NCBI GenBank assembly: GCA_963778555.1
Contig: CAVZUR010000005.1
Coordinates: 97,756-161,755 of the forward strand
Direction of reading: 5' to 3'
DNA: 64,000 bases
Source: Candidatus Moraniibacteriota bacterium
GTDB lineage: Bacteria; Patescibacteriota; Minisyncoccia; Moranbacterales; UBA1568
A model generated the notes under the pieces. That model was not told the origin of the DNA. It saw nothing but the letters and a program-made list of their open reading frames with translations, and made no database searches. The position numbers and the translations under genes were made by a program. Positions within the stretch are counted from its first letter, which is position 1; the number at the start of each line of letters is the position of its first letter. Of the stretch, positions 1,621-20,891 are shown one piece after another.

Positions 1621-4600
1621 TCGCTCTCTCCTCCTCCTCGACAACGCCGATACTACCGCCACTGGCACCACCATCGTCACCGATGCCATCGCCATCACGA
1701 ACTCAGGCGGATCCAACTTCACCAACTTCCTCAATACCCCGACCCTCGACATCAGTGCGGCGGGGGCCATCACCGGAGCGACGGGGATCACAAGCTCGGG
1801 GAACATCACGTTCTCTAGCCTCACCGCTGGCTCTGTCCTTTTTGCGGGGACGTCGGGTATTCTCCAGCAAGACAATGCCAACTTCTTCTGGGATGATACG
1901 AACAATAGATTGGGGATCGGCGACACCACGCCCGATGGGCGGTTCGACTTCGACCTAGCCTCCACCTCGACGACGGCCGCGAATGAATACGGCGGTAACT
2001 ATACGTTCACGGATACTGGCGTCGTCACAACCGGTACGGACAATACTATCGGAGAGTCGGTCACAGTCACTCGGACCGGCGCGACCGGCGGGACGATCAG
2101 CACGTATGGAAGCCTCATCACGGCCACCGCCGATACGGCGGGCGCGGGCACGTCTGCCATTATCGGCCAGTATGTGACGGCCTCTGGCGCCGACACCACG
2201 TATGGGTTTTACGCCAATGTGACAGGTACGACCAGCGCGACTTCCTATGGCTATCTGTCGAACGTGACTGATGCCACGACAGGTGCCAATACCAATTATG
2301 CCGAGGCGCTTCAGATAACAGACACTGGTGTCGTGACGGCAGGTACGGATATCACGGTGGGCGACTATATCACCGTCACTCGAACCGGCGCGACCGGCGG
2401 GACGATCAATACCTACGGGGACGAAATCATCATAACGACGGACAATGCTGGTGCGGGCACGAGTACTGCCACTGGTGAGCTTATCGATACCGGTACGGCT
2501 GGAACGACGAATGCCGATACGACCTACGGCCTCTATGTCGCTACTGAAGCCAATGCCGGAACGACAGCGTTTGGCATCTATGTCGATGCGGGTATCCAGG
2601 CTGGAACCGAATACGCAGGCATCTTTATGAATGGCAATGTCGGTGTCGGGGATGCGACACCTCTCTCACTCTTCACTGTCGGCAATGGTGACCTCTTCCA
2701 GGTCAATTCGAGCGGTGCGATCGCCGCTGCCGCTGGTGTCACCTCTTCCGGTACCATCACCTTCTCTGGTCTTTCCACGGCCGGTATCGTCACCAACACT
2801 GCTGGTGGCGTCCTGGGGACGACCACGGCCGTCGCCGCGACCCTCGGCGGCACGGGCTTCTCCTCCTATGCGGTGGGTGATCTCCTCTACGCCAATACCA
2901 CGACAAGTCTCGCCAAACTCGCTGATGTGGCGGCGGGCAGCTGTCTCATCTCGGGGGGTGTCGGTGTAGCACCGACATGGGGAGTGTGTGGCGCGATCTC
3001 GGCTGACTCACTGGATTTTGTCGACTTCCAAGACACCCTCGACCTCGATGCCAATCTCGTCCTCAATCAAACCACCTTTACTTGGGATCAGTCCTTCACG
3101 GGGACGACGACCAATGGTTTCACGTATACGGCGGCGTCTCTGACCTCGGGCTACGCTATGGACCTGAACGTCAACGGTGCCGCCGTCCTCACCTCGGGCG
3201 GGGCTCTGAATATCGACGGCCCGACCGGTGCCGCGGCTCAGGCGGCGGGCTCACTTTTCAAGATCACGACCACGGGAGCAGTGACCGGGACGGACGGGAG
3301 CGGCAATTCATCGCAGATCTCGAGTGCGACGGTGACCGGTACTGTGTCGTCTATCTCGGATGCCGCGGTCATGACGACGACCGGTGACCTCCTCACCCTG
3401 ACCGCCAACGCAGCGACGACCACGACCGGCCTCCAGACGATCAATGCCACTGGTCTCACCACGGGCTATGCCATGGACCTGAACGTCAACGGTGCGGCGG
3501 TGCTCACTAGCGGTGGAGCCATCAATATCGACGGTCCGACGGGCGCGGCGGCTCAGGCCTCTGGTGCGCTCCTCAACATCACGACCACGGGAGCGGTCAC
3601 CGGTACGGCCGGTATCGGCAACTCACTCCAGGTGACGAGCGCTACCGTGACAGGCACGGTCGCCTCTATCACCGATGCGGCCACGATGACCACGACCGGC
3701 AATCTCCTCACTCTCACGGGCAATGCGGCGACGACGGCAACGGGCCTCCTCACGGTGAATGCCAACGGCCTCACGACGGGGAGTGCAGTGAACATCGCAT
3801 CGACCGCGACGGGACTCACGACCGGTGGCGCACTGCAGACCATCACACATTCGGGCTCGAATGCGGCCAACATCGGTTCGCTTCTCTCGCTCCAAAACAC
3901 CGGGACAGCCAGTGGCAACATCAGCCTCCTCATCCAGCACAATGCGACGGGAACAGGTAATCTGGCGTTCCGAGTCAACGATATCGCCGGCGATACGACA
4001 CCCGTGGTCATCGATGGCACGGGCCAGTTCGGTATCGGGACAGCTGCGCCGACGACATTGTTCGAGCTGTACGGCACCGGGTCGGCGGACGCGATCGCGA
4101 CGTTGACCGCGCCGGATGCAACCTTTGATCCGATCCTGAAGTATCGCACTGGCGCCACTCCGGCCGTCCAGTTCTCGCTCGGCATCGACAACACTGACTC
4201 GGACAAGTTCAAGATCTTCTCGGGTGATGGCGTCGGCTCGGGCGATGAATTCGTCATCGATAGTAACGGTGTCACGACAATCGCCAACCTGAACCTGGGT
4301 GCGACGACCTTCGACTCGGACGCCGGCGCGATCGTCTGGACGGATATGCCGGTGACGGCGACGACCGCCGCTGCGACCGTGATGAGCTATAGCGCGCAGA
4401 TTGATGCGACGAATCTCATGACGATGTATTCCGAGAGCAACGGTACGGGCGGCATTCAGAATACGCGTGTCGGTATCCTGACGACTGCCCCGCTTGATGT
4501 GCTGCATGTAGCTGGTGATGTGCGCGTCGGTACGGGCACCACGGGCTGTGTAAAAGACGCAGACGCGACGGTATTGACGGGAACCTGCTCTTCGGACGAA

Positions 4601-5629
4601 CGATTGAAGAAGAATATCATCCCGTTTGATAGTGTCCTGGATAATCTCGCCTCATTGACGCCCGTTACCTACAACTGGAGAAGTGATGAATTTCCGGATA
4701 AGCATTTCGGAGAAGCTGTGCAGCGCGGTCTGATTGCTCAGGATGTACAACGGGTATTTCCAGAGCTTGTGAAACAGGATGACGATGGCTATCTGCAGAT
4801 TGATTTTTCGAGCATTCAGTTCTATCTCTTGCAAGGTATCAAGGAAGAATACGCGTTGATTCAAGACCAATCAAACAGTATCGCCGCATTGTCTCTGGAG
4901 ACGACAGCTAGTATCACGACCTTGTCTGAACTCGAAGCAGCCGTTGAGGGACAGTTGATACTCGCGAGCGCGAACTTCACGACGCTGGCGGAAAAAGATG
5001 CCTTGATTGATACCAAACTGACAGAACATGATACGTACTTCGCCCGCGACCTGGCGCGGCTCGACGCAATTGATGCGCTGACGGCTCAGATGGCGCTCGA
5101 TCAGAACGCAGCCGCGGCCAACCTGGTGACGCTTCAGACTGAAATGACGGTTTTGACCGAGCAAGTCGGCACGCTCATGGAATTCTTCAACACGCTGGAC
5201 CTCGGCAATATGGTCGCGAAAGACGAGCTCGGCAATGTCGACCTGCTCGGCGGCACGCTCCGGGCCACTGCGCTCGCCACTGGCGGTATCACTATCGAAG
5301 TTGCCGATGAAGAGGCTCCGACCATTGGAACAGCGATGATCCTTCCAGTCGAGACGGACGCGGACGGCGATGGCAAAGATGATGAGACTGGTTCGGACGG
5401 CAAGAGTACGAGCGTCCTGACAAAAGCAATGATCCCGATGATCAACGGCTCACGCATCTTCACGAGCTTCAAGGGCAATCCGAACGCGTTTAGCTGGATC
5501 GAAAAGATCGTCACTGATGACGGGGAGTATGTCGGATTCAAGATCCGCGTCTCGGCGCCGGTCACGGAAAAGATCAAGGTCGACTGGTGGCTGATCGAGC
5601 AGAAGGATACGTTCTCGTCGAATCCATAA
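1481..5629 (+). CDS. Giant (>1380 aa) Thr/Gly/Ala-rich repetitive cell-surface protein (β-helix/fibre-like repeats) with peptidase S74-type intramolecular chaperone (auto-processing) domain and a coiled-coil-rich C-terminal region
   Basis: Uninterrupted 1382-aa ORF. Low-complexity T/G/A/S repeats. Tandem ~106-aa repeat (318 bp) at ~3153-3470 and 3471-3788. Motif block 'SSDERLKKNI...YNWRSDEF...GLIAQDVQRVFPELV...YLQIDFSSIQFYLLQGIKEEY' (~4590-4870) matches the tail-fibre/endosialidase C-terminal chaperone (Peptidase_S74) signature. Confidence 0.75.
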   Translation: MLNPPSRIQLASMECKSTSPTTHPLRETPKMRFGFRTRSRERHRQCGRSLLLLDNADTTATGTTIVTDAIAITNSGGSNFTNFLNTPTLDISAAGAITGATGITSSGNITFSSLTAGSVLFAGTSGILQQDNANFFWDDTNNRLGIGDTTPDGRFDFDLASTSTTAANEYGGNYTFTDTGVVTTGTDNTIGESVTVTRTGATGGTISTYGSLITATADTAGAGTSAIIGQYVTASGADTTYGFYANVTGTTSATSYGYLSNVTDATTGANTNYAEALQITDTGVVTAGTDITVGDYITVTRTGATGGTINTYGDEIIITTDNAGAGTSTATGELIDTGTAGTTNADTTYGLYVATEANAGTTAFGIYVDAGIQAGTEYAGIFMNGNVGVGDATPLSLFTVGNGDLFQVNSSGAIAAAAGVTSSGTITFSGLSTAGIVTNTAGGVLGTTTAVAATLGGTGFSSYAVGDLLYANTTTSLAKLADVAAGSCLISGGVGVAPTWGVCGAISADSLDFVDFQDTLDLDANLVLNQTTFTWDQSFTGTTTNGFTYTAASLTSGYAMDLNVNGAAVLTSGGALNIDGPTGAAAQAAGSLFKITTTGAVTGTDGSGNSSQISSATVTGTVSSISDAAVMTTTGDLLTLTANAATTTTGLQTINATGLTTGYAMDLNVNGAAVLTSGGAINIDGPTGAAAQASGALLNITTTGAVTGTAGIGNSLQVTSATVTGTVASITDAATMTTTGNLLTLTGNAATTATGLLTVNANGLTTGSAVNIASTATGLTTGGALQTITHSGSNAANIGSLLSLQNTGTASGNISLLIQHNATGTGNLAFRVNDIAGDTTPVVIDGTGQFGIGTAAPTTLFELYGTGSADAIATLTAPDATFDPILKYRTGATPAVQFSLGIDNTDSDKFKIFSGDGVGSGDEFVIDSNGVTTIANLNLGATTFDSDAGAIVWTDMPVTATTAAATVMSYSAQIDATNLMTMYSESNGTGGIQNTRVGILTTAPLDVLHVAGDVRVGTGTTGCVKDADATVLTGTCSSDERLKKNIIPFDSVLDNLASLTPVTYNWRSDEFPDKHFGEAVQRGLIAQDVQRVFPELVKQDDDGYLQIDFSSIQFYLLQGIKEEYALIQDQSNSIAALSLETTASITTLSELEAAVEGQLILASANFTTLAEKDALIDTKLTEHDTYFARDLARLDAIDALTAQMALDQNAAAANLVTLQTEMTVLTEQVGTLMEFFNTLDLGNMVAKDELGNVDLLGGTLRATALATGGITIEVADEEAPTIGTAMILPVETDADGDGKDDETGSDGKSTSVLTKAMIPMINGSRIFTSFKGNPNAFSWIEKIVTDDGEYVGFKIRVSAPVTEKIKVDWWLIEQKDTFSSNP
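4590..4870 (+). other. Peptidase S74 / intramolecular chaperone auto-processing domain within giant surface protein
   Basis: Conserved S74 chaperone-domain motifs (SDERLK, YNW, GLIAQDVQ, IDFSSIQFYLLQGIKE) read directly from the translation. Confidence 0.6.
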
Positions 5630-6015: not shown

Positions 6016-6576
6016 CTATTTCTGTTTAAAAAAATGACGCTTCAGGTGTTCTACATCATTGAGAGTGATCACTGTGGCCACTCGGACGTATGGTTCGGCG
6101 CCGTATAAGTGGACTAATTTCAAGATAGCCGACTCATACGGGTATGGGGAAACAAAGACGCTTTGTTGAAGTTTATAAAACTCCAATGTCTGGAGATGTT
6201 CACGCAGGACGTCTCGAAATGCTCGATTGGCTTCCGGAATATCGAAGAGAACCAGGCGCCACTTCTTATCCCACGCTTTCGGCTTTCTCAAATGGATAGA
6301 ATCACCGAAAAGGCTGAGTACTTGAGCTTCACGTTGACCCTCTTTGGTCAGCACTAAGCGGTACGAACCATCCGAAAGCTTCAATTCCCTAAAGAGTTTT
6401 TGGTGCGACAGCCGACGAAGAGAACGATTGAAACTTCGCTGGTCGATCTCCTTCCATCCGGCATGGGCGAGTCTGAGCGCTCTGAAATACTGAGCGGGGG
6501 ATTGAACTGCGCCGAGCGCCACCCCAGTCAAGAGCACAAGAAGAATTTTCTGCTGTACTGGACCGAATTTATACAT
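6016..6576 (-). CDS. PaaX-like winged-helix transcriptional regulator (Cas2-fold C-terminal domain)
   Basis: 186 aa. N-terminal wHTH-like region. C-terminal 'WDKKWRLVLFDIPEANRAFRDVLREHLQTLEFYKLQQSVFVSP' matches the PaaX-family core motif (W..V.FDIPE...R...R..L...GF..LQ.SV). Confidence 0.5.
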   Translation of the reverse strand: MYKFGPVQQKILLVLLTGVALGAVQSPAQYFRALRLAHAGWKEIDQRSFNRSLRRLSHQKLFRELKLSDGSYRLVLTKEGQREAQVLSLFGDSIHLRKPKAWDKKWRLVLFDIPEANRAFRDVLREHLQTLEFYKLQQSVFVSPYPYESAILKLVHLYGAEPYVRVATVITLNDVEHLKRHFFKQK

Positions 6577-6780: not shown

Positions 6781-7879
6781 TTACTGGCCGACTTCTTTCC
6801 AGTTGAAGTCGCACGCCCGAGTACCGGGACAGGTGACAATGGTTCCGCAGCCATCATCGATGGTGAAACTTGCCACTGGGTCATTCGAGCATTTATTGAC
6901 AGAAATCGCGGTGGAACTGGCACTCGCACAGGAATTGGTCGGGACGCAGACCACGTTGGCTATCGCGAAGGCAGAAGCGTGAAGTCCGAGGTACGGCGTG
7001 ACGCTAATAGTGCTTGACCCAGTGGATACGCCTCGAGCCGTCCGTCCTCTAGGACTGCCATCGTTATTTCCCACCCTTGCGACATTTTGATTTGAGCTGA
7101 GCCAGGCGACAGCATCGGTCACATCAGTCGTACCAGTGAGGTTGCTGCAATCAATAGTTCCGCCACCGGCACGGTAATAGGCATTGAACTGGAAGGGCGT
7201 GATGCCTATAATCGCTGAGGCGGGACAAATCTTGAAATCCGCACCACCGAGAACCGTCACGGTGGCCTGTGCCGTGGTGACGCCGCTAGAATTGGTGGCA
7301 ACGAGTGTAAATATCGTGGTACTCGTCAGCAAGGGTGTTGAAATCGAGCCGATCGGTCCCAAAAACGGTCCACCAACCCCATTATCGATGAACACGGAAG
7401 TCGCACCAGGAATATTCCAGTTGAGGGTAGTAGCGGTATTGTTGGGAATGGTAGCTGGAAACGCCCAAAAGGCTCCGGGGGCGATGACGGGGGGGACAAC
7501 AGGCGCGGCGACGCTGCAGACTCCGCCGCATTGGTATGCGCCGGGACAACATTGGCCCAAGACATTGCAACTGGAACAAGGCAGGCCGTAGAGCGGCTCG
7601 ATCATGGAGGTTCAATATCGCACAGGAGGCGGGGACGACGAGTCCGCCGGCTTCGCCCGATGGAGATGTCGCCGCAATCTGGATTTCGGAAGAATACGCT
7701 GCTATGGGGGCCGAGCGGGGAGTTTGATACGAAAAGAAAAACCCACCCGCCAGGAAGGTTACGAGAGCAATTGAAAGGAAGAGAACCTTATTTTGTTTTG
7801 ATGCAATCCGGATTATTTTCCGGATTTTTTTACGCAAAGACATACCTTTTGTTTCGAGGGAATCAACACCAATCCACAA
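6781..7879 (-). CDS. Secreted Cys-rich protein with bacterial Ig-like (Big_2-like) domain(s); N-terminal signal/TM segment encoded in a different frame (apparent frameshift near 7605-7630)
   Basis: ORF 6781-7605 has Ig-like 'SGVTTAQATVTV', 'ARVGNNDGS...TISVTPYLG' and many Cys. Upstream ORF 7382-7879 (other frame) supplies 'MSLRKKIRKIIRIASKQNKVLFLSIALVTFLAGGFFF' signal anchor. Confidence 0.45.
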
Positions 7880-7921
7880 CCATAGTATACATGTTTTTCC
7901 GGCTTTTCTAAACCATGGAGG

Positions 7922-8698
7922 CTATTTGTCAAGTAGCCCGAGATTATGTCGGATGACACTTCGAGTTTCCTCGAGACCGGCCGCGTAGAGGGCTGGATCA
8001 TTTCCCGGATACGCCCGGCCCCAATCAGTTGGGCTCATGTGTTCGCTTGCGAGGAGTGCGGTCTCTAGAGCCTTTCGAGCAGCTTCTTTTTCTCCAAGAT
8101 TGAGGAGCGCGGTACCATAAATGTTGTTCAGCCAGGGATTGCCGTGAGCCTGTCTGAGGCCGGCTGCTGCTGTGTCGCGAGTCTTTTCATACTCACCTAG
8201 CTTGAAGTAAATCCACGCCAAGTCGTTGTAGCCGGCCCAATTGAAGGAATCGCGTTTGATGAATTCGCTGAATCCCCAGATTGCGCTTTCATAGTCGCCT
8301 CTATATCCACTAATGAGCCCCTGCATATAGTAGGCCCGCTTGAATTCAGGATCTATACGGAGTACGGTGTCCATCTCAATCCGCGCCGATTCGAATCTTC
8401 CACTGATGAAATGGATGCGTCCGAGCTGGAAATGCGCTTCCAAAAAATCAGGATGTAATTCAATCGCTCTTGTGTAAGCAGACTCCGCTTTCTTAATGTC
8501 ATATGCTTCTCCATCCCCGAAATAGCTATCGCCGATTTTTAGAAACAGATCTGGATTGCTACGATTAACGAAAGTGGCAACCGTTTCCAACCCAAGACCG
8601 GGCCAGAAGGAATAGAGTTGCGGGATATGGAAACATGCGTAGGTACTGGAGAAAAGGGCAATAACAGTCCCAACCAACAGCACAGTGGAGGGCCTCAT
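7922..8698 (-). CDS. TPR-repeat protein with N-terminal membrane anchor
   Basis: Multiple TPR-like repeats (AYTRAIELHPDFLEAHFQLGRIHF..., RAYYMQGLISGYRGDYESAI..., YNDLAWIYFKLGEYEKT...). N-terminal hydrophobic helix. Confidence 0.7.
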   Translation of the reverse strand: MRPSTVLLVGTVIALFSSTYACFHIPQLYSFWPGLGLETVATFVNRSNPDLFLKIGDSYFGDGEAYDIKKAESAYTRAIELHPDFLEAHFQLGRIHFISGRFESARIEMDTVLRIDPEFKRAYYMQGLISGYRGDYESAIWGFSEFIKRDSFNWAGYNDLAWIYFKLGEYEKTRDTAAAGLRQAHGNPWLNNIYGTALLNLGEKEAARKALETALLASEHMSPTDWGRAYPGNDPALYAAGLEETRSVIRHNLGLLDK

Positions 8699-8807
8699 TT
8701 TGAGAGTCAGAGAAGTGATGGAATCCGTGATTTTATTCATGCATGATTCCAGTATAATATATCATGTTGAGATAGTATTTTTGCAGAAAAAACAGTTGTC
8801 GTTGTGT

Positions 8808-10229
8808 TCATGGGAACATATGCGGCAACGGATTCAGCTTCCACTCGGTGACACCTTTGGAAGCAGCGAATTCCTCCAAACGGTCGCTGTCGAAGGTGCC
8901 CTGGCACTCGAGGAGATAGAGGGGGAAAGCCTTCGGTACATAGACTTGGGCGATGTAGAACCCGAGCTTGGCTTGGATGGGATGCTTGGGGAAATAGGCA
9001 ATCGGGTAGTAGTCAGGGCCTCTTTTTCTCAGAACGGAGAGGCAGGCTTTCAGTTGGGTAGCATCATCGGTCGCTGAGGTGAGATCCTTTTGGCAGAGTT
9101 CCGCGTAGGAAACCTGCTTGCCGGAGAGGAACCACTGGAATTGCTGGATCTTTTCGGGACCGCGCCAGTAGAGTTGCCGTCCGATTTGACCGAGAACAGA
9201 AACGAATGGTTCGGATTGAGCATCCTTTTCCAGCTGCCGCTTATCACCCTCGTAATAAAACATTTCTGAGCTTATCACTATTTCTCTTAGAGAATGCCGT
9301 ATCGCTTGTTCGAATGTTGTCGCACTGGCGCCGCTCAGAACAATCTGAGGAGTCGCGCTCTTTGAGTTTAGGGCAGCAATAACGATAGACGGAATAGAGA
9401 GCGTTGTCACATCTACGATATGTAAAGACAGGCCGCATGATTCCAACGGGCGTATGATTTCCTGCATCTCCTCGGGGAGTGTTTCTACATCAATGATCCG
9501 CGGAGGAATCTGAGTGAGCCAGTGGACCAAGAATGCATCGCGCTCGATTGTTTCGAGGAGCCCACGCAGGAGAGCGCCATTTTTTGTGAAGTACCCGGCT
9601 GATCCGCTGGTCGTGGCGTTGACGAGAGGGGCTTCAGTGGAATAATTTTTGACGCACCATGAGGTCACTTGCCGCGGGATATACGTTTGTTCTTGCGTAA
9701 TGAGATTAATTCCACTCAGCCAATCCATCGGACGGGACGGGTCATGCTGGAGTTCCCGGTAATGCTCTCTTTGGATGTCCAAGAAGCGATGGTATTTCGG
9801 CGGGTAGAGTACTGGAAACTTTTTGAGCAGTTCGTTCGATGAAGCGATTAGTATGTCGGTATCCTTATTATACAAACCAGAAATGATGCGCTCAAGCATT
9901 TCGCCGATCGCTTTGGAAATAGCAGTCGCCCTATCTTTCGCAATCCCATGGCCGCTCACGCTCCGAAGATGTCCACGCACGACTACTTCTTTTTCCAGGG
10001 AATAAAAAAAGTATCCGGGAAAATGGAGACTTCTTTCTGCCATCGCATCGACGAGCCCTTTTTTTTTCAGATAAGTGTAAAGGGTTTCAGAGGCAGAGGT
10101 GACATCATCCGTGTGAGCAATATGCAGACTGTCCGCAAGCCAGGAATATCGGACGAATTGTTTTAATAAGCAAATCCGTATCCGATCGCCGATTCCCAGC
10201 GGTATTCGCCAGGGTCCGAACTTGTCCAT
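8808..10229 (-). CDS. YcaO-domain cyclodehydratase (TOMM/azoline-forming 'D' protein), paralogue 1
   Basis: 'TSGSAGYFTKNGALLRGLLETIERDAFLVHW' YcaO core. C-terminal Pro-rich 'NPLPHMFP' (PxPxP-type) motif typical of YcaO C-termini. ~474 aa from MDKFGPW. Confidence 0.8.
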   Translation of the reverse strand: MDKFGPWRIPLGIGDRIRICLLKQFVRYSWLADSLHIAHTDDVTSASETLYTYLKKKGLVDAMAERSLHFPGYFFYSLEKEVVVRGHLRSVSGHGIAKDRATAISKAIGEMLERIISGLYNKDTDILIASSNELLKKFPVLYPPKYHRFLDIQREHYRELQHDPSRPMDWLSGINLITQEQTYIPRQVTSWCVKNYSTEAPLVNATTSGSAGYFTKNGALLRGLLETIERDAFLVHWLTQIPPRIIDVETLPEEMQEIIRPLESCGLSLHIVDVTTLSIPSIVIAALNSKSATPQIVLSGASATTFEQAIRHSLREIVISSEMFYYEGDKRQLEKDAQSEPFVSVLGQIGRQLYWRGPEKIQQFQWFLSGKQVSYAELCQKDLTSATDDATQLKACLSVLRKRGPDYYPIAYFPKHPIQAKLGFYIAQVYVPKAFPLYLLECQGTFDSDRLEEFAASKGVTEWKLNPLPHMFP

Positions 10230-10349
10230 AATTGGTTTCTTTCGTTTGATTTCGTCTGGTCTAACCGAATGTACCAATATACAGAGTGATGTGGATAGTT
10301 TTACATGGAGATGTCATACAAGTACACCTACGTTTCTCCTGGTGTATTT

Positions 10350-10384
10350 TATCATGCATAAAAAAACAGGAGCCATGTGACAAC
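10350..10384 (-). terminator. Putative rho-independent terminator after secreted-protein gene
   Basis: Minus-strand reading ggagtcgtgttgtcacatggctcc followed by tgttttttt. Confidence 0.35.
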
Positions 10385-10425
10385 ACGACTCCTGGAATTT
10401 GCACCCTCAGCGTTTGAGGGCAGTC

Positions 10426-11241
10426 TCAATTACTTGCAGCGGCAGATTCCTTTTGGAAGACCGTGCTGTTTTGCCCATCACTCCCGCCATAACCGGCCCA
10501 CAGCTCATCGCCATGATTGGTGAAATAACATGTTCCACCCGCTCCCCCGCAGGGGAAAGCGAATTTCCCGTCCTTGATCTCTGCGGACTGGATCTTGCCG
10601 CTTGGTTTTTGCTGTGTGCCGTATATGAATTTGACCACACACTTCGCGTCGATTTCGCCGATCCAGAGCCACCGCTTGCCATAGCCCCAGTTTCCTGTCC
10701 AGCCACCGATGAAGGCGGCACAGGCTACTGGCACGTCGGCAGCCACCGGCTTGACCGAAAAGCCAGCTTCACGCTGAGGTTGCAAAGCCGCCAATTCTGT
10801 TTCGGCAAGTTTTCGGATGCTGACCGCCCGGGACTGTCCATTTGCGTCCGTGATAGTCCCGTTAAACGTGCCGTCTGGGTTTTGGGATGCTACGACCTTG
10901 CCCCCCAATCGGGTAATAAGCGATAACGTACGACCTTGAGCGGTCTCAATCATCTCTGCGCTAATCGGGAGCGGTTGCAGTCTCGGAAGACCGAGAGCAG
11001 CGTTGAGCGCGACTTTTCCAGTGTCGCCTTGTTTCGTTCCGCCAGAAAGCTGCAACGTCAGTGTTCGGTCGCTGCCGACGACCGTAATGAGCCATGAAGA
11101 GTTCAGATCGAATGGCAGCTGACTTGTCAGTGCCGCCAGAGTGATACTGTCGCTAGAGGCCTTCATCTGGGCGAAGCCAATGCTTGGCAGGCTGGAAAAA
11201 ACAGAGAAAAAAACCGAAAAGAGAATCGAAAGTGCCCGCAT
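10426..11241 (-). CDS. Secreted hypothetical protein (signal peptide) with Gly/Cys-rich C-terminal tail, embedded in the TOMM-like locus
   Basis: N-terminal 'MRALSILFSVFFSVFSSLPSIGFAQ' signal peptide. C-terminal '...FPCGGAGGTCYFTNHGDELWAGYGGSDGQ'. Confidence 0.55.
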   Translation of the reverse strand: MRALSILFSVFFSVFSSLPSIGFAQMKASSDSITLAALTSQLPFDLNSSWLITVVGSDRTLTLQLSGGTKQGDTGKVALNAALGLPRLQPLPISAEMIETAQGRTLSLITRLGGKVVASQNPDGTFNGTITDANGQSRAVSIRKLAETELAALQPQREAGFSVKPVAADVPVACAAFIGGWTGNWGYGKRWLWIGEIDAKCVVKFIYGTQQKPSGKIQSAEIKDGKFAFPCGGAGGTCYFTNHGDELWAGYGGSDGQNSTVFQKESAAASN

Positions 11242-11397
11242 GATAAACTACTCCTTGGTTGATTGGTAAGGGACAGCACCGCCACTATACCATATTTGCT
11301 ATATAAGTCAAATAGTAGTATTCCGTTTACGCATTGCTTTAAGTGCCGCTTTTTTTCTGCATTCTTCATTTACGACATATAATGGAAAGACCTCCGT

Positions 11398-12141
11398 ATG
11401 CATACATTTCTCTACAATTTTTTTCATCACGAGACCAATGATCGGACGGAAAAGGGCCTGGTGAGTATTCCGGCAGACAAGGGGCGCTGGCCGGAGTCAT
11501 GGAAAACGATAACGTGCAAACGGTATTCTCTGTTTCCGGAGGTTGAGCTTCCTGAAACGAGCGGGTCTTTGTTTGAGCAGCTCTTGCGAGAACGCAGATC
11601 GAGCGAAGGGCATATCGTGGGGAATATCCTCACTCTGCCCGTACTTGCCTATATCCTGCAGTGTGGGTATGGCCTGCAGGGCGGGAGCGAAGGAGATCAG
11701 AGGAAAGCGAACCGAACCGTTCCTTCCGGCGGGGGACGATATCCGCTCGAAGTGTATGTTTTTCTCTTCAAGCCGATTGGCACTTGCGTTTCGGGAATCT
11801 ATCATTACAGTGTGAAGCATCATTCCTTGGAACCAGTTGCGCTCATGCCATTCACGCTTGAAGATATTGGTTCTTTCGCACCGGAGCAGGCGTGGCTCCA
11901 GGATACGAACGGGATGATTTGCATCACGAGTGTGTTTCAGAGAACGGTTGAAAAATACGGCAGCCGCGGGTATCGCTACATCTTGCTGGAGGCTGGGCAT
12001 GCTGCTCAGAATATGCTGCTCGCCGGAACCGAAAAGGGCGTGAACATCATCCCGATTGGCGGCGTAGAGGCTGATAAAATAGAAAAAAAACTTGGCCTGA
12101 GCGGGGAAGAAGAAGGGGTCGTGTATACGCTCTTTTTATAA
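11398..12141 (+). CDS. SagB-type (McbC-like) FMN-dependent dehydrogenase of the nitroreductase superfamily (TOMM 'B' protein)
   Basis: 'GGRYPLEVYVFLFKP...SGIYHYSVKHHSLEPV...RGYRYILLEAGHAAQNMLLAGTEKGVNIIPIGG' are canonical SagB/nitroreductase motifs. Confidence 0.8.
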   Translation: MHTFLYNFFHHETNDRTEKGLVSIPADKGRWPESWKTITCKRYSLFPEVELPETSGSLFEQLLRERRSSEGHIVGNILTLPVLAYILQCGYGLQGGSEGDQRKANRTVPSGGGRYPLEVYVFLFKPIGTCVSGIYHYSVKHHSLEPVALMPFTLEDIGSFAPEQAWLQDTNGMICITSVFQRTVEKYGSRGYRYILLEAGHAAQNMLLAGTEKGVNIIPIGGVEADKIEKKLGLSGEEEGVVYTLFL

Positions 12142-12233
12142 TAAACCCTAGTATGCGGAGCGACTCCTCTTCAAAATTTTTCCATTGCTCGGGATACCTC
12201 TCCCTTAGGGAGTATGTGGAGGATATCGAGTCG

Positions 12234-13680
12234 ATGAGGCAGCATGGCCCGTGGCGGCTCCCGCTCGGCATCGGCGACCGGGTGCAGATTTTCTTTTTCT
12301 CCCTGATTCTGAAATACTCCTGGTTTTCTGATGCGTTGAGCATACGGTATCCCTATACGTGGAGCCCAGCGTATTCGGTGCTCATCGCCTATCTGAAAAG
12401 GTGTGGCGTAGTCGATGTGGTCCGGGAGCAGAATGCGAATCGCAGCGGATATTCCTTCTTCTCCCTTCAAAGGGGCATTTCCATAAATGAAAATATTCGG
12501 ACCATCGGCGGTCTGGGAGTCGACCAAGAGGTCTCGACGGCGTTTTCCAAAGCGATCGGCGAAATGCTTGAGCGCATCATTTCTGGTTTGTATAATAAGG
12601 ATACCGACATACTAATCGCTTCATCGAACGAACTGCTCAAAAAGTTTCCAGTACTCTACCCGCCGAAATACCATCGCTTCTTGGACATCCAAAGAGAGCA
12701 TTACCGGGAACTCCAGCATGACCCGTCCCGTCCGATGGATTGGCTGAGTGGAATTAATCTCATTACGCAAGAACAAACGTATATCCCGCGGCATATTGTT
12801 TCGTGGTTTGGGTTTGCCGAAGCGCGCGTGTTCAAAGACATTCTCCTGCATCCGACATCCAATGGCTGTGCCGGGTACTTTACGAAGACGGGTGCTGTTT
12901 TGCGAGGGCTGATCGAAGCAGTGCAACGGGACGCTTTTCTCGTCCATTGGCTCACGCAGATCGCCCCTGATCGCATCATCGAGGACACTCTGTCGCTAGA
13001 AATTCAGAAACAAGTCGGGGAATTCAAGGCGCGTGGAATCACCCTGCATATTCTCGATGTCACAGCTCTTTCTATCCCGTCCGTATCCATTGTGGCAATC
13101 AATGCTGAATCGGAAACTCCGCAGATTATTTTGAGCGGCGCAGAGCGGCGACATTTGAGCGGGCGGTGCAGGACGCACTCCGTGAAATGGTGCTGATGTC
13201 AGCGACTATGTTCTACCAAGGAGAAGCTAATAATAGAAAGAAAGAGCCTATGTTAGCAGAGCCGCAGCCATTCGTTTCTGATCTCAATGAGAAAACCAGG
13301 CAACTCTACTGGCGCGGTCCCGAAAAGATCCAGCAATTCCAGTGGTTCCTCTCCGGCAAGCAGGTTTCCTACGCGGAACTCTGCCAAAAGGATCTCACCT
13401 CAGCGACCGATGATGCTACCCAACTGAAAGCCTGCCTCTCCGTTCTGAGAAAAAGAGGCCCTGACTACTACCCGATTGCCTATTTCCCCAAGCATCCCAT
13501 CCAAGCCAAGCTCGGGTTCTACATCGCCCAAGTCTATGTACCGAAGGCTTTCCCCTCTATCTCCTCGAGTGCCAGGGCACCTTCGACAGCGACCGTTTGG
13601 AGGAATTCGCTGCTTCCAAAGGTGTCACCGAGTGGAAGCTGAATCCGTTGCCGCATATGTTTTCTTGATGAGCGATACAG
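12234..13680 (+). CDS. YcaO-domain cyclodehydratase paralogue 2, mosaic relative to paralogue 1, interrupted by two frameshifts (~13145 and C-homopolymer at ~13555-13560)
   Basis: ORFs 12153-13196 and 13166-13642 together align over full length to YcaO 1. Blocks 'KAIGEM...QTYIPR' and 'RQLYWRGPEKIQQ...VPKAFP' are identical in amino acid sequence (near-identical DNA, inverted), while the middle and N-terminal blocks are diverged. Copy 2 has CCCC where copy 1 has CCCCC at the shift site. Confidence 0.7.
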
Positions 13681-13777
13681 GTTGTGGAAAGAGGAGACAT
13701 CGTGTATCGTTTATAGTGTACGCGGTACCGGAGAGTCACGAGACAAATATAAATCATTTCAGGCCGTGTTAGCGAGT

Positions 13778-14470
13778 ATGTTTCAGAAAGTCAGGCGAGT
13801 TGCGAGCAGAAAACTCCTGTTTCTTGTTGGCGTATCTTTGGCCGGTATCCTTGGCATCCTGGGCAGTTATACGCGGACGAACTATTCGAAAAGCGGTTCG
13901 CTGGTTGTCCCAAAGGCGCAGGCGGATACCCCTCCCACTTGTGCTTCGTGCGGTTGCGCCTATACTGAGGACCAATGCGTTACATACTGGTCCTGTTTTC
14001 CGGCCGACACGCCTATCAGCACACCAGCCGGTAAGCGAGTCATACAGGAGCTGGCGGTCGGAGACAGCGTGCTTGGTTTCGACATTGAAACCGGCCGGAC
14101 CGGAGAATACCCGGTGACCAGAACCTTCAAACACGGCCGAAACGATGCGAATACCGTGTATTCTCCGCTGATTCAGATTACGCATGCAAAAGGATCGTTC
14201 CTCGCGACGGATAATCATTGGATCTATCGGCGCAATGGCCGGGTCGGGGAATACGCCAATTTTGACCGTGTCGGAACGCTTCAAGTCGGTGACATGCTGA
14301 CGACAGAAAGCGGCGAAGAGGTGGCGGTGACAGCGATCGAACCGGGGCCCGAGTATGATTTTGTGTACAATCTCGAGGTGGCGGAGGCCCATACGTATTT
14401 CGCTAGCGGTATCCGGGTACACAATAGCGGCAGTGGACCTGGTGGCTGTTGTGGCTCTTCAGGAAAATAA
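13778..14470 (+). CDS. Small secreted Cys/Gly/Ser-rich protein whose Cys-rich core is interrupted by a complete mini-intein-like Hint domain (13994-14425); candidate RiPP/TOMM precursor
   Basis: Signal/TM 'MFQKVRRVASRKLLFLVGVSLAGILGILG'. N-extein '...PPTCASCGCAYTEDQCVTYWS'. Hint blocks: A 'CFPADTPI', B 'GSFLATDNHWIY' (TxxH), F 'VYNLEVAEAHTYFA', G 'SGIRVHN' then +1 Ser. C-extein 'SGSGPGGCCGSSGK' then stop. Confidence 0.7.
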   Translation: MFQKVRRVASRKLLFLVGVSLAGILGILGSYTRTNYSKSGSLVVPKAQADTPPTCASCGCAYTEDQCVTYWSCFPADTPISTPAGKRVIQELAVGDSVLGFDIETGRTGEYPVTRTFKHGRNDANTVYSPLIQITHAKGSFLATDNHWIYRRNGRVGEYANFDRVGTLQVGDMLTTESGEEVAVTAIEPGPEYDFVYNLEVAEAHTYFASGIRVHNSGSGPGGCCGSSGK

Positions 14471-14534
14471 AGCTGCTTTTTCGGATGGGAGTAATTTGCA
14501 GCCAAAATACTTTTAATCACCACGAGTTGTTATT

Positions 14535-15761
14535 ATGGAAACTGAAGCCGATATCCGAACTCCCGCTGGAGACTCGAGGGAGAAAAATAAAAAGATTCGG
14601 TTGACCGGAAAAGTCGTTCTTGTTGTCATGCTAATAGTCGCCCTTGCATATGGGGCGTTGTATTTGTTCGAGAAGAATACCTGGTATAAATTGAGATCCG
14701 ATCGGACAATTTATACACCGGCCAATGATAACGCGTATACCGAAAGTCTCCTAAATAATAATCCGAAGCTATTGCAGGATTCGTTTGTGGCCGATGTCGA
14801 AAGCGGAGTGAATGATAAGTTTACCAAGTCAGATGCCTATTTCCTGACCCACCGGTACTTTGATAACGGCGGAAATGTCTACGAAATCTATGATTATGTA
14901 AACAGCCATCCGAGTCTGGAATTTCTCAAGGAAGCCGAAGAAATTTACCCGGCTATTTTTGATCAGCTACGGACCAAAACGCTTTCCCCGGTGCCATATT
15001 CCAGGCAATCTCTGTATGCAGTTCTGGCATATCTGGAAGTACTTGATAAGCACGGGTATGCGGATATCGCCGCTCTGGGCACGCTCGCTAATCAATATGC
15101 GAAGACGGCCTATTTCATAAAAAAGAGATCAGAAAACGATCCTGCTGGTGGCTTGGATCCGGCTCCAATGATACGGCAAGCGACGGAAAAAGCGATTGTG
15201 TTCGAATTGAAAACCAGAGATGTGATGCTGGGAATGTCTAAGGGTAATCAGTCTCTCGTGAAAAGTATAGCGAGTCGACCGAAATCGCTTGATTCGAGAT
15301 CGCCTCTGCGGAAGAATTTTTCGAAGGAAATAACAGCCCAATCATTGATTACCGGACTTAATCAGTATGCCGCCTGTCTTCGATATTTGGAGGTCACGGG
15401 AATTGCCATCTCGATCATCGATTCACCCGTGCAAGCGAATGATGTTTTTTCCTTCAGCATGTTATTTGCAGAAACCTATGTTCCAGAAATGGAGGTATTT
15501 ACGTCGCTCCTCAATGCCTCGACGCTCGCTTTGGTGAGTCCGGAGAGTGCTGATGCTATCAAGACTGCTCTCCAACCGATTCTGGAGTACGATCTTACTC
15601 AAGAATTGGGGATAATTCGCCTTCTCTTTGAGGCGAAGGACGACAAATTCGGCGGCTGGGATATATATGGAAAAAGGAATGCCATAATGCTGGCCAATAT
15701 CGTTCCTGAGTTCAAGGCATGGCTTATTGCGGGAGGGTGGGAAGAACCTGATTTTCAGTAG
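14535..15761 (+). CDS. Hypothetical membrane-anchored protein (single N-terminal TM)
   Basis: 408-aa ORF. 'VVLVVMLIVALAYGALYLF' TM helix. No recognisable catalytic motifs. Confidence 0.5.
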   Translation: METEADIRTPAGDSREKNKKIRLTGKVVLVVMLIVALAYGALYLFEKNTWYKLRSDRTIYTPANDNAYTESLLNNNPKLLQDSFVADVESGVNDKFTKSDAYFLTHRYFDNGGNVYEIYDYVNSHPSLEFLKEAEEIYPAIFDQLRTKTLSPVPYSRQSLYAVLAYLEVLDKHGYADIAALGTLANQYAKTAYFIKKRSENDPAGGLDPAPMIRQATEKAIVFELKTRDVMLGMSKGNQSLVKSIASRPKSLDSRSPLRKNFSKEITAQSLITGLNQYAACLRYLEVTGIAISIIDSPVQANDVFSFSMLFAETYVPEMEVFTSLLNASTLALVSPESADAIKTALQPILEYDLTQELGIIRLLFEAKDDKFGGWDIYGKRNAIMLANIVPEFKAWLIAGGWEEPDFQ

Positions 15762-15875: not shown

Positions 15876-16571
15876 ATGAAGACGGTTTTGATTATCGGAG
15901 GGTCTTCGGGGATTGGAAGCGCCTGCGTACGTACTTTCGAACAATCAGGGTGGAATGTTTTTTCCACCTTCTATTCAAATAAAAAAACAACCAGCAAAGG
16001 ATCTTCCGTCACCTGGAGCTTCCTAGACATAAAGAATATTCCAGCTGGTTTTTTTGATACCCTGCCAAAAATCGATGCGGTGCTAATTTGTGCTGCCAAA
16101 AATGTAAGCCAGGACCTGAATAATTTACAGAAGAGTGACACAGAGGAAATTGTAAACACGAATCTCATCGGACAGATTGAGTTCATCAAACTCCTCAAGG
16201 ATAAAAAGGGTGCGGAGCTGTCCTCGATAGTACTTTTCGGCTCGACCGTGCCAATGACAGGTTTTAAAAGAAGAATCGCTTACGGTATAACGAAAGCCGC
16301 GATAGAGGGCCTTACGAAAACGCTGGCAATGGAATTTTCCCCCAATACCCGCGTGAATTGCATTGTACCGGGATATATCAAGACAGGTTTGTATTTCAAA
16401 AATAGCGCTATCAGTGATACGGATAGAGCAAGGAAAATCCTTTTAGGGCGGTTGGGCGACCCGGAAGAGGTTGCAAAACTTGCCTTTTTCCTATCTTCGG
16501 AAAACGCTTCCTATATAAACGGAGAATCGATTGGGATTAATGGCGGTTTTAACTATGAGTATGAAGTCTAG
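15876..16571 (+). CDS. Short-chain dehydrogenase/reductase (SDR family)
   Basis: 'TVLIIGGSSGIGSAC' Rossmann motif and 'NASYINGESIGINGG' SDR C-terminal signature. Confidence 0.75.
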   Translation: MKTVLIIGGSSGIGSACVRTFEQSGWNVFSTFYSNKKTTSKGSSVTWSFLDIKNIPAGFFDTLPKIDAVLICAAKNVSQDLNNLQKSDTEEIVNTNLIGQIEFIKLLKDKKGAELSSIVLFGSTVPMTGFKRRIAYGITKAAIEGLTKTLAMEFSPNTRVNCIVPGYIKTGLYFKNSAISDTDRARKILLGRLGDPEEVAKLAFFLSSENASYINGESIGINGGFNYEYEV

Positions 16572-17247
16572 CAATGGTAAGTTTGCGTGTATAATTCTTG
16601 CTGCAGGCAAGTCCGAAAGGTTTAATGCGAATAAACTCTTTGCGACCCTTACCAAAGGACCCCTTCTTTTTATGGTTGTCGATTCCATTTTATCTTTTAA
16701 GTTGCTTGGTAAGTTAGTGATTGTCGCAGCGAAGGGGGATTTTGATCGAATTCAGAAAAGATATGGACGGAATCAAGAAGTGAACGTCGTTGTCGGTGGA
16801 ATAAACCGAACGGAAAGCACGCTACGGGGCCTGCATGTTGTCGCACAGGGGGGATACGAATATGTCTATGTTCACGACGGATCTCGCCGACTCTTTACGA
16901 GAAATGATTTTATCCGGCTCAAGAGAGAGTTGCTGTCAAAGAATCTGGATGGAGTTGTCCAATATGTCAAGATATACGATTCGCTCATGAGTTTCGATGG
17001 GAGTATTGAAAACAACAATAGTTATCTCGACAAAACGAGGGTAGTGCAATTAAAGACACCCCACGTTTACAAAGTGGGTTCAATCTTAAAATGTCTGACT
17101 CAGTATAAACCTCAAGTCAGGAGAGAATTGGAGAACGTTGAAATCATGTCTTTGTACGGGAAAGAAATAGGATTTATCGATGGTTCTATCGCCAATATAA
17201 AAATTACTTACAAAAGTGATTTACGGGTCATTAAAAAGCTGTTGTGA
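16531..17247 (+). CDS. Nucleotidyltransferase of the IspD/TarI family (CDP-alcohol-forming cytidylyltransferase)
   Basis: 'FACIILAAGKSERF' N-terminal signature of MEP cytidylyltransferase / ribitol-5-P cytidylyltransferase family. Confidence 0.65.
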   Translation: MGLMAVLTMSMKSSNGKFACIILAAGKSERFNANKLFATLTKGPLLFMVVDSILSFKLLGKLVIVAAKGDFDRIQKRYGRNQEVNVVVGGINRTESTLRGLHVVAQGGYEYVYVHDGSRRLFTRNDFIRLKRELLSKNLDGVVQYVKIYDSLMSFDGSIENNNSYLDKTRVVQLKTPHVYKVGSILKCLTQYKPQVRRELENVEIMSLYGKEIGFIDGSIANIKITYKSDLRVIKKLL

Positions 17248-19388
17248 AAAAGATATCTTTCGTCGTCTATTATCCGTATCAGTGGTTTATCTATCGGAAT
17301 ATCTATAGACAGATACCGGCTGACAAGCGGGAAGTCATCGTTGATCTGAGCGATAATCCGGGACTTCAGGATGAGGAAGTAAGGATGAGCATCGCTTCTT
17401 TGCTTCAACGAGAGAGCGTTCCGTTTCGGGTCCTCGAGAAAGTGATTTGTTTCAATCGGAAACTGCTTCAGGATTTTTTCACTGATGTCGAGGTCATCGT
17501 ATCTTGCTGGGAAAACGGTTGCGTGTCGAACAATGCCCTGCGACATATTAAAAAAGTAAACGTGACTTACGGAATAGCCAAAGAATTGACGATGCTCCGG
17601 CCAACGCGTTCGATCTACGATGTCATATTGGCGTATGGCGCGCGTGATCAGCGGTATTTCGAATTGCTCACGAAATCCATAGCCATCGGTAATCCGCGAC
17701 TGGACAATTATTACCGTGGCATAGCTGATGATTCCATTCGGGAAAAACTGTCAAGATATTTCAAAGATAAAAAAAAGAAAACCATACTGTATGTTCCGAC
17801 TCACGGAGATCTCGGGTCATTTCATGAAATGTTACCTACGTTCGCACGGATATCGAGACAATATAATATCATTTTTAAGCCACACTATTATACTTTGAGG
17901 GAGGAGAAAGAGATTATAGAAAAGTACCGGCAGATAGAGTCGCTTTTGGTCATCGATGACACGTGGGACACGATTGAAGTTATGTCCGTAAGCGATATCA
18001 TCGTGAGCGATAACTCGAGCGCTATTTTCGATGCGATGCAGATCGATAAGCCGTTAATCGTATGTGATTTTCTGGATAATCAATTTATAGATACTATTCA
18101 TAAAAAAATCCGTCTTGCAAAAAAAGGAACGGGAATACTTACGGCGCTGACGTATTCAGACAGTTTGGAACAGGAGATAAAAAGAGGAGGTCTAGCAATG
18201 ACCATAAAAAAACCGAATGATATTGATGACCTTCTGGAAAACATAGATGACACAGACGGCCGGTATCGGGACTTTCGGAAAGAAATCGTTGCTGCGAATT
18301 TCAAATATGTTGATGGTCATTCGTCTGAAAGAGCTGTCGAGATCATTCTGCGAATATACGGCACGAAGAGGACGCATGTGCCGGGTATCCTGCACCATGC
18401 ATACCTCGCGTATAATAACCGAGCGTATCAATGGAGTATCGAATCTGAACACAAGGAAACTGTCCTTACGACTGTCCCGAGTACGACCATTGTCTGGATT
18501 TTCTGCGAGTTGCGTCAGAAGAATGATGAGATTATATGCACCATCTACTCAGCATTGAACGAAAAGGAGGTCACCACAGTCTGTGTTTCGGGGAGTGTCG
18601 GAAAAGATGTGCGTGACACTCTTTCACGGAGTGAATTCTCTGACAGGATTATATTTTTTGAAAATCATGCAGACGGGATAAATCTTGTTTATTCGCGGCT
18701 CGGCATCTGCGATAACCTTCTTGTGGTGAAGGCGAATACTATTATCAAAGACTTGAATACGATATGTAACTTCAAAGTATCCTGTAAACGAGACATGATC
18801 TTTTTTTCTGAAAATATTGTTCCTTTTCCAGAAAATTGGGTAAGCCGACTCTTTTATCAGTTGAAATATGAGATGCTTGGCTTTCGGAGTCTGGCAATGA
18901 ATACGCTGCTCTCTATCCCGTATGAGTTGATCTGTGCTTCCGAAAAGTGCGCCGTTCTCATCGATAGTAAGGCCCTGCTTGCTGTTTCACCACGGCCGGT
19001 TGTAGACACTTTTATCTTCGAGTGGGTTCTTTCGTCTTTTATTAACATTGATTCATTGAAAAGTCAGGGTCGCGATTTTTATGGTACGCTCTGCGATGAT
19101 TATATCCTTATGCCGAATTTCTTCATGAATGGTAGCCGGTCGGCCAATGCGGATATTATTAACAAACTTGTGGCAAAAGGACTGATATTGAATGCTTTAG
19201 GTATCCCCATAAAGCGGTGGCCGGATAAAAAAATCGGTAAACTGCTGTGGAAAATCGCGACTGGCGACTTCAGGCGCTATCAACTCTTGAAATTGATACT
19301 GTTGAAGGTGCTCACTGTGAAAAAGCAAGTATTTCTCAGCAAAGCCCGTTCTTTTTTGGAGAAGGTTTACGCAGATGACGCCCCATAG
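17244..19388 (+). CDS. CDP-glycerol/ribitol-phosphate glycerophosphotransferase (TagF/TagB family) with extra C-terminal domain
   Basis: 'IIFKPHYYT...VSDIIVSDNSSAIFDAMQIDKPLIVCDF' are TagF-family catalytic motifs. 714 aa. Confidence 0.65.
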   Translation: MKKISFVVYYPYQWFIYRNIYRQIPADKREVIVDLSDNPGLQDEEVRMSIASLLQRESVPFRVLEKVICFNRKLLQDFFTDVEVIVSCWENGCVSNNALRHIKKVNVTYGIAKELTMLRPTRSIYDVILAYGARDQRYFELLTKSIAIGNPRLDNYYRGIADDSIREKLSRYFKDKKKKTILYVPTHGDLGSFHEMLPTFARISRQYNIIFKPHYYTLREEKEIIEKYRQIESLLVIDDTWDTIEVMSVSDIIVSDNSSAIFDAMQIDKPLIVCDFLDNQFIDTIHKKIRLAKKGTGILTALTYSDSLEQEIKRGGLAMTIKKPNDIDDLLENIDDTDGRYRDFRKEIVAANFKYVDGHSSERAVEIILRIYGTKRTHVPGILHHAYLAYNNRAYQWSIESEHKETVLTTVPSTTIVWIFCELRQKNDEIICTIYSALNEKEVTTVCVSGSVGKDVRDTLSRSEFSDRIIFFENHADGINLVYSRLGICDNLLVVKANTIIKDLNTICNFKVSCKRDMIFFSENIVPFPENWVSRLFYQLKYEMLGFRSLAMNTLLSIPYELICASEKCAVLIDSKALLAVSPRPVVDTFIFEWVLSSFINIDSLKSQGRDFYGTLCDDYILMPNFFMNGSRSANADIINKLVAKGLILNALGIPIKRWPDKKIGKLLWKIATGDFRRYQLLKLILLKVLTVKKQVFLSKARSFLEKVYADDAP

Positions 19389-19454
19389 TTGTTGAAAGGA
19401 TGACCTAAGGCAGGACAACCAGACTTGAGAATTATGTGCTAGAATGGTCGTAAT

Positions 19455-20888: not shown

Positions 20889-20891
20889 CAT

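Follow-up and report, generated by a model that had tools for sequence, protein, structure and literature searches.

Natural-product pathways are very scarce in bacteria of the candidate phyla radiation (CPR), whose genomes are minimal. Gene clusters for linear peptides that contain azol(in)e rings (LAPs) have been known from these bacteria since 2020: the available passages of Sharrar et al (2020, mBio; PMC7298704) report 110 LAP clusters in 93 further CPR genomes, with a nitroreductase in 89 of the 110. Here, we analysed a stretch of 64,000 nt (the window, to whose positions all coordinates refer) of contig CAVZUR010000005.1 from a Candidatus Moraniibacteriota bacterium, and we consider it quite likely that the genes in and around 8808–14470, together with the pathway that we infer for them, represent a Patescibacteria-type LAP gene cluster resembling those for thiazole/oxazole-modified microcins (TOMMs). 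Its product would probably be an azole peptide similar to microcin B17. As in the clusters of PMC7298704, a YcaO gene is accompanied by an adjacent nitroreductase-type dehydrogenase and by a small Ser/Cys-rich precursor next to YcaO; the cluster described there has a peptidase, unlike the one studied here, and the available LAP passages of that paper mention no precursors with Hint domains, no set of p408, tetratricopeptide-repeat (TPR) and secreted proteins, no leaders resembling signal anchors and no paired YcaO genes. The original prediction for this stretch had regarded such clusters as unusual for a small, CPR-like genome. When one genome per GTDB species was scanned, however, 22 related loci came up, all in metagenome-assembled genomes (MAGs) and most labelled as Patescibacteria groups, and CPR LAP clusters had already been reported (PMC7298704); the basic idea is thus not new, and for CPR bacteria the locus is a typical one.

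The interval 8808–14470 comprises five genes, and the two genes that flank it belong with them. On the minus strand lie the gene of a TPR protein with an N-terminal hydrophobic helix (7922–8740, matching multiple TPR Pfam families), YcaO-1 (8808–10229) and the gene of a secreted 271-aa protein (10426–11241) that has a signal peptide, no Pfam match and a conserved C-terminal domain of ~110 aa. On the plus strand lie a SagB-type FMN dehydrogenase (11398–12141), YcaO-2 (12153–13668), a predicted precursor gene (13778–14470) and p408 (14535–15761), which encodes an uncharacterised, membrane-anchored protein of 408 aa without a family match. The two YcaO genes are transcribed divergently. Between the 271-aa gene and YcaO-1, a consensus scan, and only this, points to a terminator-like hairpin on the minus strand (10367–10394; 12-bp stem followed by T7).

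The assignment of YcaO-1 is supported by profiles, motifs and predicted structure. Its open reading frame (ORF), mechanically called at 8808–10277 on the minus strand from a TTG at 10277, probably starts at the ATG at 10229; the resulting 473-aa product is identical to database protein P0001. It matches the Pfam YcaO family (PF02624) at 131.9 bits (E 4e-38, profile positions 2–323 of 325; gathering score 25.7), and its best NCBIfam match, end to end (2–377 of 377) and with 150.5 bits, is TIGR03604 (SagD). The protein contains ETIERDAFLVHW, and its YcaO-2 counterpart contains EAVQRDAFLVHW. Also present are the acidic motifs ExxER (GEMLER) and ExxERD (LETIERD), which we take to be the ATP/Mg-binding motifs from the residue roles in the E. 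coli YcaO and BalhD studies. Residues E110, E113, R114, E226, R230 and D231 are invariant in 19 family sequences, as are P469, H470 and F472 of the consensus C-terminus LNPxPHMF[SP]; a Pro-rich (PxPxP-like) extreme C-terminus is typical of azoline-forming YcaOs. The AlphaFold2 (AF2) model of YcaO-1 (predicted TM-score 0.87) has LynD, MusD, an archaeal YcaO and McbD (6gos_D) as its top folds in the Protein Data Bank (PDB), the cyanobactin heterocyclases LynD and MusD being the best Foldseek matches (E 3e-21, TM-score ~0.7 on the query); cyanobactin heterocyclases are also the top PDB profile matches. The original YcaO call is therefore borne out by the PF02624 match and by the presence of the ATP-binding motifs, and the motifs quoted with it, including the terminal NPLPHMFP of YcaO-1, are indeed found. 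The family counts 139 database homologues of ~500 aa, which, where names are given, come from Kaiserbacteria, Moranbacteria, Pacebacteria and Gracilibacteria; it is almost confined to Patescibacteria MAGs.

YcaO-2 has the long N-terminus of the family, and in the assembly it is split over three frames, consisting of ORFs 12153–13196 and 13166–13642 and a final stretch of 39 codons. Aligned with YcaO-1 at the DNA level, it is short of one base near 13140 and of another at 13551 (C5 to C4). When both sites are repaired, a 505-aa protein with the conserved residues of the family results, ending in NPLPHMFS; the first ORF on its own matches PF02624 at 95.7 bits over the first 203 of 325 profile positions. 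These deletions are either real or consensus errors. The long housekeeping genes of the window (ValRS, RecG, NusA and trigger factor) are intact, and the frameshift at 13551 lies inside a tract that is otherwise 100% identical to YcaO-1, so it is either very recent or an error. Another repeat-containing gene of the window, at 36415–38241, is likewise broken, with at least four frame hops. The earlier claim of two YcaO cyclodehydratases thus stands insofar as both genes match YcaO, but the second is frameshifted in this assembly and does not form one open frame.

The 247-aa dehydrogenase matches PF00881 and, at 108.1 bits against a cut-off of 78.4, TIGR03605 (SagB family peptide dehydrogenase), in agreement with the SagB/McbC-type assignment made before. 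Its PDB sequence matches are 3eo7, CyaGox, McbC and BmdC, and its conserved Lys-Tyr pair aligns with the pair of CyaGox. In 19 of 19 closer loci, the gene directly upstream of YcaO is SagB. One locus, L006, has two SagB paralogues (2923–3669 and 7143–7898) with one YcaO.

Comparison of the ORFs of the related loci with the window proteins, from which all cassette counts derive, reveals a recurrent order, nearly restricted to Patescibacteria MAGs: TPR protein, SagB, YcaO, small precursor and then one to three copies of p408. TPR homologues adjoin SagB/YcaO in 18 of the 22 loci, a small ORF is present in 16–17, usually directly after YcaO, and p408 occurs in 15, often as two or three tandem paralogues; structure prediction on database homologues gives p408 an all-alpha fold. 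Relatives of the 271-aa protein are found in 11 loci (L004, L006, L007, L010, L015, L017–L021 and L026). The original prediction had named this protein as one of two candidate substrates. We reject it in that role, as it belongs to the conserved accessory proteins, shows no hypervariability and lacks any tract rich in Cys, Ser and Gly.

The other candidate, the 230-aa product of 13778–14470, fared better and reads as the precursor, homologous to the small peptides that follow YcaO elsewhere and carrying a Hint domain inserted in its core. The small ORFs have a basic N-terminus, a hydrophobic helix of ~19 residues and the motif SNYSKxxS(L/F)xxPxAxA↓D (the arrow marking the putative cleavage site), followed by hypervariable cores of Gly, Cys, Ser and Asp, for example GDGCGGCSGDASADGCADSGSDSDGCCCY or GDGCGGCSG, that are reminiscent of microcin B17. 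In the window protein, the leader (residues 1–50, 13778–13927) ends in AQA↓D and its conserved motif reads TNYSKSGSLVVPKAQA↓D. A hidden Markov model (HMM) of the leader, built from Hint-less small precursors only, matches 13778–14470 at 54 bits (E 2e-15), and no unrelated match fell below E 0.03 among 3627 ORFs. With a mean hydropathy of ~2.0 over 19 residues and an N-terminal flank of 3–5 Lys/Arg without acidic residues in almost all of 26 sequences, the leader looks like a Sec-type signal anchor. To describe the gene product simply as a secreted protein therefore falls short, as it is a precursor homologue with a Hint domain in its core. The core is divided into an N-terminal half, TPPTCASCGCAYTEDQCVTYWS (residues 51–72, 13928–13993), and a C-terminal half, SGSGPGGCCGSSGK (residues 217–230, 14426–14470 including the stop codon), with Ser as the +1 residue. 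The N-terminal half aligns with the contiguous core of the related locus L022 with a score of 69 (shuffles 25 ± 5, 0 of 2000 reaching it). When the two exteins are joined, they align across the junction with the uninterrupted, Hint-less L022 core, PTCSACGCAWTSVQCDNFQNGSGDACCGDA, with a score of 88 (shuffles 35 ± 6, again 0 of 2000).

Between the two halves lies the Hint or bacterial intein-like (BIL) domain (residues 73–216, CFPAD...VHN, 144 aa; 13994–14425), which matches PF07591 (PT-HINT) at 54.8 bits (cut-off 27.7) and TIGR01443 (intein C-terminal region) at 25.1 (cut-off 15.6). The nearest solved sequences are 8w20, 6y75 and 2lwy; apart from the BIL domain 2lwy, they are Hint domains from large toxins. 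The window protein has the catalytic residues C73 (Cys1), T144 and H147 (TxxH), H215-N216 and the +1 residue S217. The design of leader plus Hint recurs in 13 close homologues and in at least six further clusters at 50% identity, some 30 relatives in all. An alignment of 17 Hint-bearing precursors shows no variation at Cys1, at Thr and His of block B or at the terminal His-Asn; P0258, the representative of an additional cluster, ends in His-Ala instead of His-Asn. The position of the domain varies: it follows the whole core, with only 0–3 residues after it; it lies within the core, as in the subclade of the window; or it precedes the core, beside a second copy of the leader-end motif (L011–L014). 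L015 has two tandem Hint-bearing precursor genes. The closest relatives of the domain outside precursors, 42–51% identical (P0255, P0261, P0271, P0278, P0284 and others), sit at the extreme N-terminus (residues ~10–180) of proteins of 1500–2300 aa.

What might the Hint domain do? Of 23 full-length Hint precursors among the relatives, 10 have Ser or Thr as the +1 residue. As a +1 nucleophile is absent from many of them, splicing is not the conserved function; across the wider family, only the residues for the N-terminal acyl shift are kept without exception, which makes self-cleavage at the border of core and Hint domain, by way of a Cys1 thioester, the likelier common activity. In the subclade of the window, where all needed residues are present, true splicing is possible. 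Alternatively, the domain could be a selfish or neutral intein-like insertion that adds nothing to biosynthesis, in a partly decayed locus with YcaO-2 as a pseudogene; the interrupted precursor would then merely be put up with, as the Hint domain excises itself. The two frameshifts of YcaO-2, the canonical splicing residues of the window protein and the contiguous, similar core of the Hint-less relative L022 are in line with such an insertion, which we nevertheless regard as improbable. The features of an intein insertion are missing, as the host peptide is hypervariable, there is no homing endonuclease and the insertion point changes with lineage among three positions relative to the core. 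Moreover, many copies that have no +1 nucleophile, and would be unable to splice cleanly, still possess Cys1 and TxxH, and all except one of them His-Asn as well, a pattern that indicates selection for cleavage. The decay of the locus is itself questionable, since the repaired YcaO-2 retains the conserved residues of its family and one of its frameshifts is very recent or an error.

How would the cluster operate with so few partners? We compared about 50 proteins of the 64-kb window with Pfam, and ten of them also with NCBIfam, and found no E1-like/ThiF, Ocin-ThiF, TfuA or peptidase domain among them; the sole ABC transporter of the window is encoded ~44 kb away, at 58029–59768. The profile matches and these scans uphold the proposal of an azole locus with YcaO and a SagB-type dehydrogenase that lacks an E1-like (C) protein, TfuA and a peptidase. 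[quoted passage not shown] This suggestion finds no support: residues 1–60 of YcaO-1 form two helices in the AF2 model, at low to moderate confidence, the first 130 residues of eight family members have no Pfam match at E ≤ 10, and no RRE was detected in the window proteins scanned. In ~13 of the related loci, a cytoplasmic protein of ~550 aa that fuses a phosphoribosyltransferase (PRTase) to a PQQ-like beta-propeller is encoded upstream of SagB (L004 4610–6271, L010 5503–7155, L020 4400–6124 and ~10 other loci), an arrangement that most one-YcaO cassettes have, and this protein could be an alternative partner of YcaO; such a gene was sought in the window and none was found there.

From these components the following pathway can be proposed. 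In the cytoplasm, a stand-alone YcaO would use ATP to cyclodehydrate Cys and Ser residues of the Gly-rich core to azolines, YcaO-1 being the candidate cyclodehydratase, and YcaO-2 another one if its two frameshifts are not real. The SagB-type flavoprotein would oxidise the azolines to azoles. The Hint domain in the core would process itself, and in the subclade of the window it could join the core halves into a peptide resembling the Hint-less ones. The signal anchor-like leader would direct the product into general secretion and be cut at A-x-A↓D; a Sec-type leader with this site would explain why neither a dedicated exporter nor a leader peptidase is present. The accessory proteins (p408, TPR and 271-aa) may serve in maturation, retention or immunity, either at the membrane or extracellularly.

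Several points weigh against this reading. Azoline-forming YcaOs normally require an E1-like or Ocin-ThiF partner, and as none is present, stand-alone activity has to be assumed. The TIGR03604 score of YcaO-1 falls short of the cut-off of 219.25, Gln replaces the second Glu of the Mg/ATP motif (the fourth acidic position) in YcaO-2 as in most family members (LEvvQRD), and YcaO-2 may be a pseudogene. On the side of the precursor, the A-x-A↓D site lies ~20 residues past the hydrophobic helix, farther than in typical signal peptides; a Sec-exported core would first have to be modified in the cytoplasm; the C-extein alone does not align significantly with L022; and the +1 residue, Ser or Thr in the subclade of the window, is Arg, Asp, Gly, Lys or Tyr elsewhere. 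The pathway chemistry is a prediction for every member of the family.

Could YcaO and SagB modify another protein that is not a RiPP, or could the small ORFs be ordinary membrane-anchored surface peptides unrelated to the enzymes? Such a role would fit the lack of an E1-like or RRE partner and the low TIGR03604 score, as well as the N-terminal membrane helix or signal peptide found in every non-enzyme member of the cassette and the teichoic acid-type genes that adjoin it in the window and in L027–L029. We judge it highly improbable, because the small ORF stays beside SagB-YcaO, usually right after YcaO, in 16–17 loci of divergent CPR lineages, and because these ORFs combine a conserved leader with the hypervariable Gly-Cys-Ser core that is typical of azole precursors. 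In addition, SagB-type dehydrogenases are, to our knowledge, known only for azoline oxidation.

The YcaO pair of the LAP cluster has a second unusual feature. The 3′ 364 nt of YcaO-1 (8815–9178) recur inverted at the 3′ end of YcaO-2 (13299–13661) save for one C, as two exact blocks (8815–8920 with 13556–13661, and 8922–9178 with 13299–13555), and an internal tract of 250 nt is 100% identical, again inverted, between 9670–9919 of YcaO-1 and 12544–12793 of YcaO-2. Between and around these tracts the two genes are only ~35–78% identical. Each gene has its own orthologue elsewhere: P0002, 72% identical, for YcaO-1, and P0003 (in L027) for YcaO-2, which in a block of 30 columns is 97% identical to P0003, whereas YcaO-1 is 32% identical. 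This pairing indicates old paralogues that have recently exchanged tracts by gene conversion, and we interpret both the 250-nt and the 364-nt identities as putative conversion tracts, the shared 3′ tract being of the YcaO-1 type.

The same arrangement makes the YcaO 3′ ends an inverted repeat across which, as judged from sequence comparison, the intervening 4.1 kb can flip. In the close relative L026, the order is secreted protein, YcaO-1 type, Hint precursor and p408, which is the order of the window after inversion of the segment between the arms; both orientations therefore exist among relatives. L017, a 4029-nt contig of a different species, has the layout of the window (a YcaO-2 type gene and SagB in one direction, the secreted protein and YcaO in the other), and at both ends it breaks off within roughly one codon of RQLYWRG, the point at which the identical 3′ block of the window starts. 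As terminal inverted k-mers were sought on L017 and none was found, its repeat-boundary argument rests only on this shared codon position. In three further relatives, the contig begins at the 3′ end of YcaO. We saw no gene for a recombinase in the window. That the mosaic identity is an assembly artefact, by a chimeric consensus or a collapsed repeat, is scarcely credible even in a metagenome assembly whose frameshifts concentrate in repeat-containing genes, given that an independent k = 31 assembly of run ERR11593397 yields a Logan contig (L031) that is 100% identical to window 13632–14669 over 1038 nt and begins exactly k−1 = 30 nt inside the end of the repeat block, as expected of a true repeat, and given that L017, with both paralogues likewise arranged, and the three further contigs end or begin at the same boundary; by this comparison, the YcaO repeat does not appear to be an artefact.

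Taken together, the Hint-bearing precursors and the inverted repeat lead us to a bolder proposal, which is doubtful as a whole: that Hint-bearing LAP precursors form a class of self-processing RiPPs that act through a core thioester, and that the YcaO inverted repeat is a recombination switch. The Hint domain would leave the azole-modified core with a thioester at its C-terminus, and this thioester would serve either to splice the core halves, as in the window, or to transfer or free the peptide. The acceptor of such a transfer could lie in the cell envelope, much as cholesterol receives the cargo of Hedgehog. Either route would replace the usual logic of protease and exporter. Inversion, in turn, would change which of the YcaO operons the precursor and p408 genes are driven by.

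The surroundings of the cassette offer further observations. Directly downstream of p408, a set of teichoic acid-like genes (15876–22875) encodes a short-chain dehydrogenase, an IspD-type cytidylyltransferase, two CDP-glycerol/ribitol glycerophosphotransferases and two glycosyltransferases of family 2 (GT2); the trio of dehydrogenase, IspD and Glyphos_transf is linked to the cassette in L027, L028 and L029 too, and a functional link is possible. The two GT2 genes (20892–21851 and 21907–22875) are an apparent tandem duplication whose homopolymer runs are repeated 1015 nt apart. The TPR gene is closely preceded upstream by genes for a PaaX-like regulator whose middle domain is Cas2-like (6016–6576) and for a secreted, Cys-rich protein containing a Big_2 domain (6781–7605); a relative of the latter adjoins the TPR gene in L012. 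At 1481–5629, a repetitive surface protein of 1382 aa, rich in Thr, Gly and Ala, ends in a Peptidase_S74 domain (endosialidase intramolecular chaperone), as in phage tail fibres.

Farther from the cassette, a run of 14 G at 26401 is intergenic between 25473–26210 (minus strand) and 26490–27869 (plus strand). Five or six small paralogues at 32930–36400 match T4SS_pilin or TrbC/VirB2 pilins (PF18895, PF04956), and the pilin-like protein at 35591–36400 has an additional Cys-rich N-terminal part. Its C-terminus is nearly duplicated in the C-terminal ~170 aa of the product of 36415–38241, a GC-rich (~62%), Cys/Pro-rich, pilin-like gene, one of whose frame changes falls at a C7 run at 37053; this gene is either decaying or phase-variable, or it reflects consensus errors in repeats.

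A cassette so conserved across CPR bacteria likely matters for their surface biology or for interactions with hosts. Its two enzymes form a compact azole system that seems to function without the E1-like partner considered necessary for azoline-forming YcaOs, and its paired YcaO genes illustrate cleanly how a biosynthetic cluster can undergo concerted evolution and inversion. If the Hint domain indeed makes a thioester or splices the core, this would be a new maturation logic for RiPPs and possibly a tool for peptide engineering. The Hint-interrupted precursor family, the accessory set and the paired, partly homogenised YcaO genes as an invertible repeat appear to be undescribed in the literature searched; this search, which is incomplete, brought up no RiPP precursor reported to carry a Hint domain.

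The locus shares with McbBCD of microcin B17 and with SagBCD the YcaO cyclodehydratase (with McbD as a fold match) and its Pro-rich C-terminus, the SagB/McbC-type dehydrogenase with the Lys-Tyr pair and the Gly/Cys/Ser-rich core. It differs from them in having no E1-like McbB/SagC, ABC exporter, immunity gene or dedicated leader peptidase, in the hydrophobic membrane-type helix of its leader and in the Hint domain of its precursor. The cyanobactin heterocyclases LynD/TruD and MusD are the closest structural matches of the YcaO-1 model; they have ~750–780 aa with fused E1-like/RRE domains, whereas YcaO-1, with 473 aa, lacks them. In bottromycin-type pathways, YcaOs act without an E1-like partner, as is proposed here, and two YcaO paralogues occur in one cluster; those pathways differ in that they have no SagB partner, a follower instead of a leader peptide and YcaOs without the Pro-rich C-terminus.

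With BIL/PT-HINT domains, mini-inteins and the Hedgehog autoprocessing domain, the Hint domain of the precursor has in common Cys1, TxxH and the terminal His-Asn. Like BIL/PT-HINT domains, it occurs in hypervariable secreted proteins and often without a +1 nucleophile, and as in Hedgehog, it lies C-terminal to its cargo in many relatives. The window domain differs in that no homing endonuclease is present and in its host, a RiPP precursor of ~70–90 residues in place of a large toxin, an adhesin or a housekeeping enzyme.

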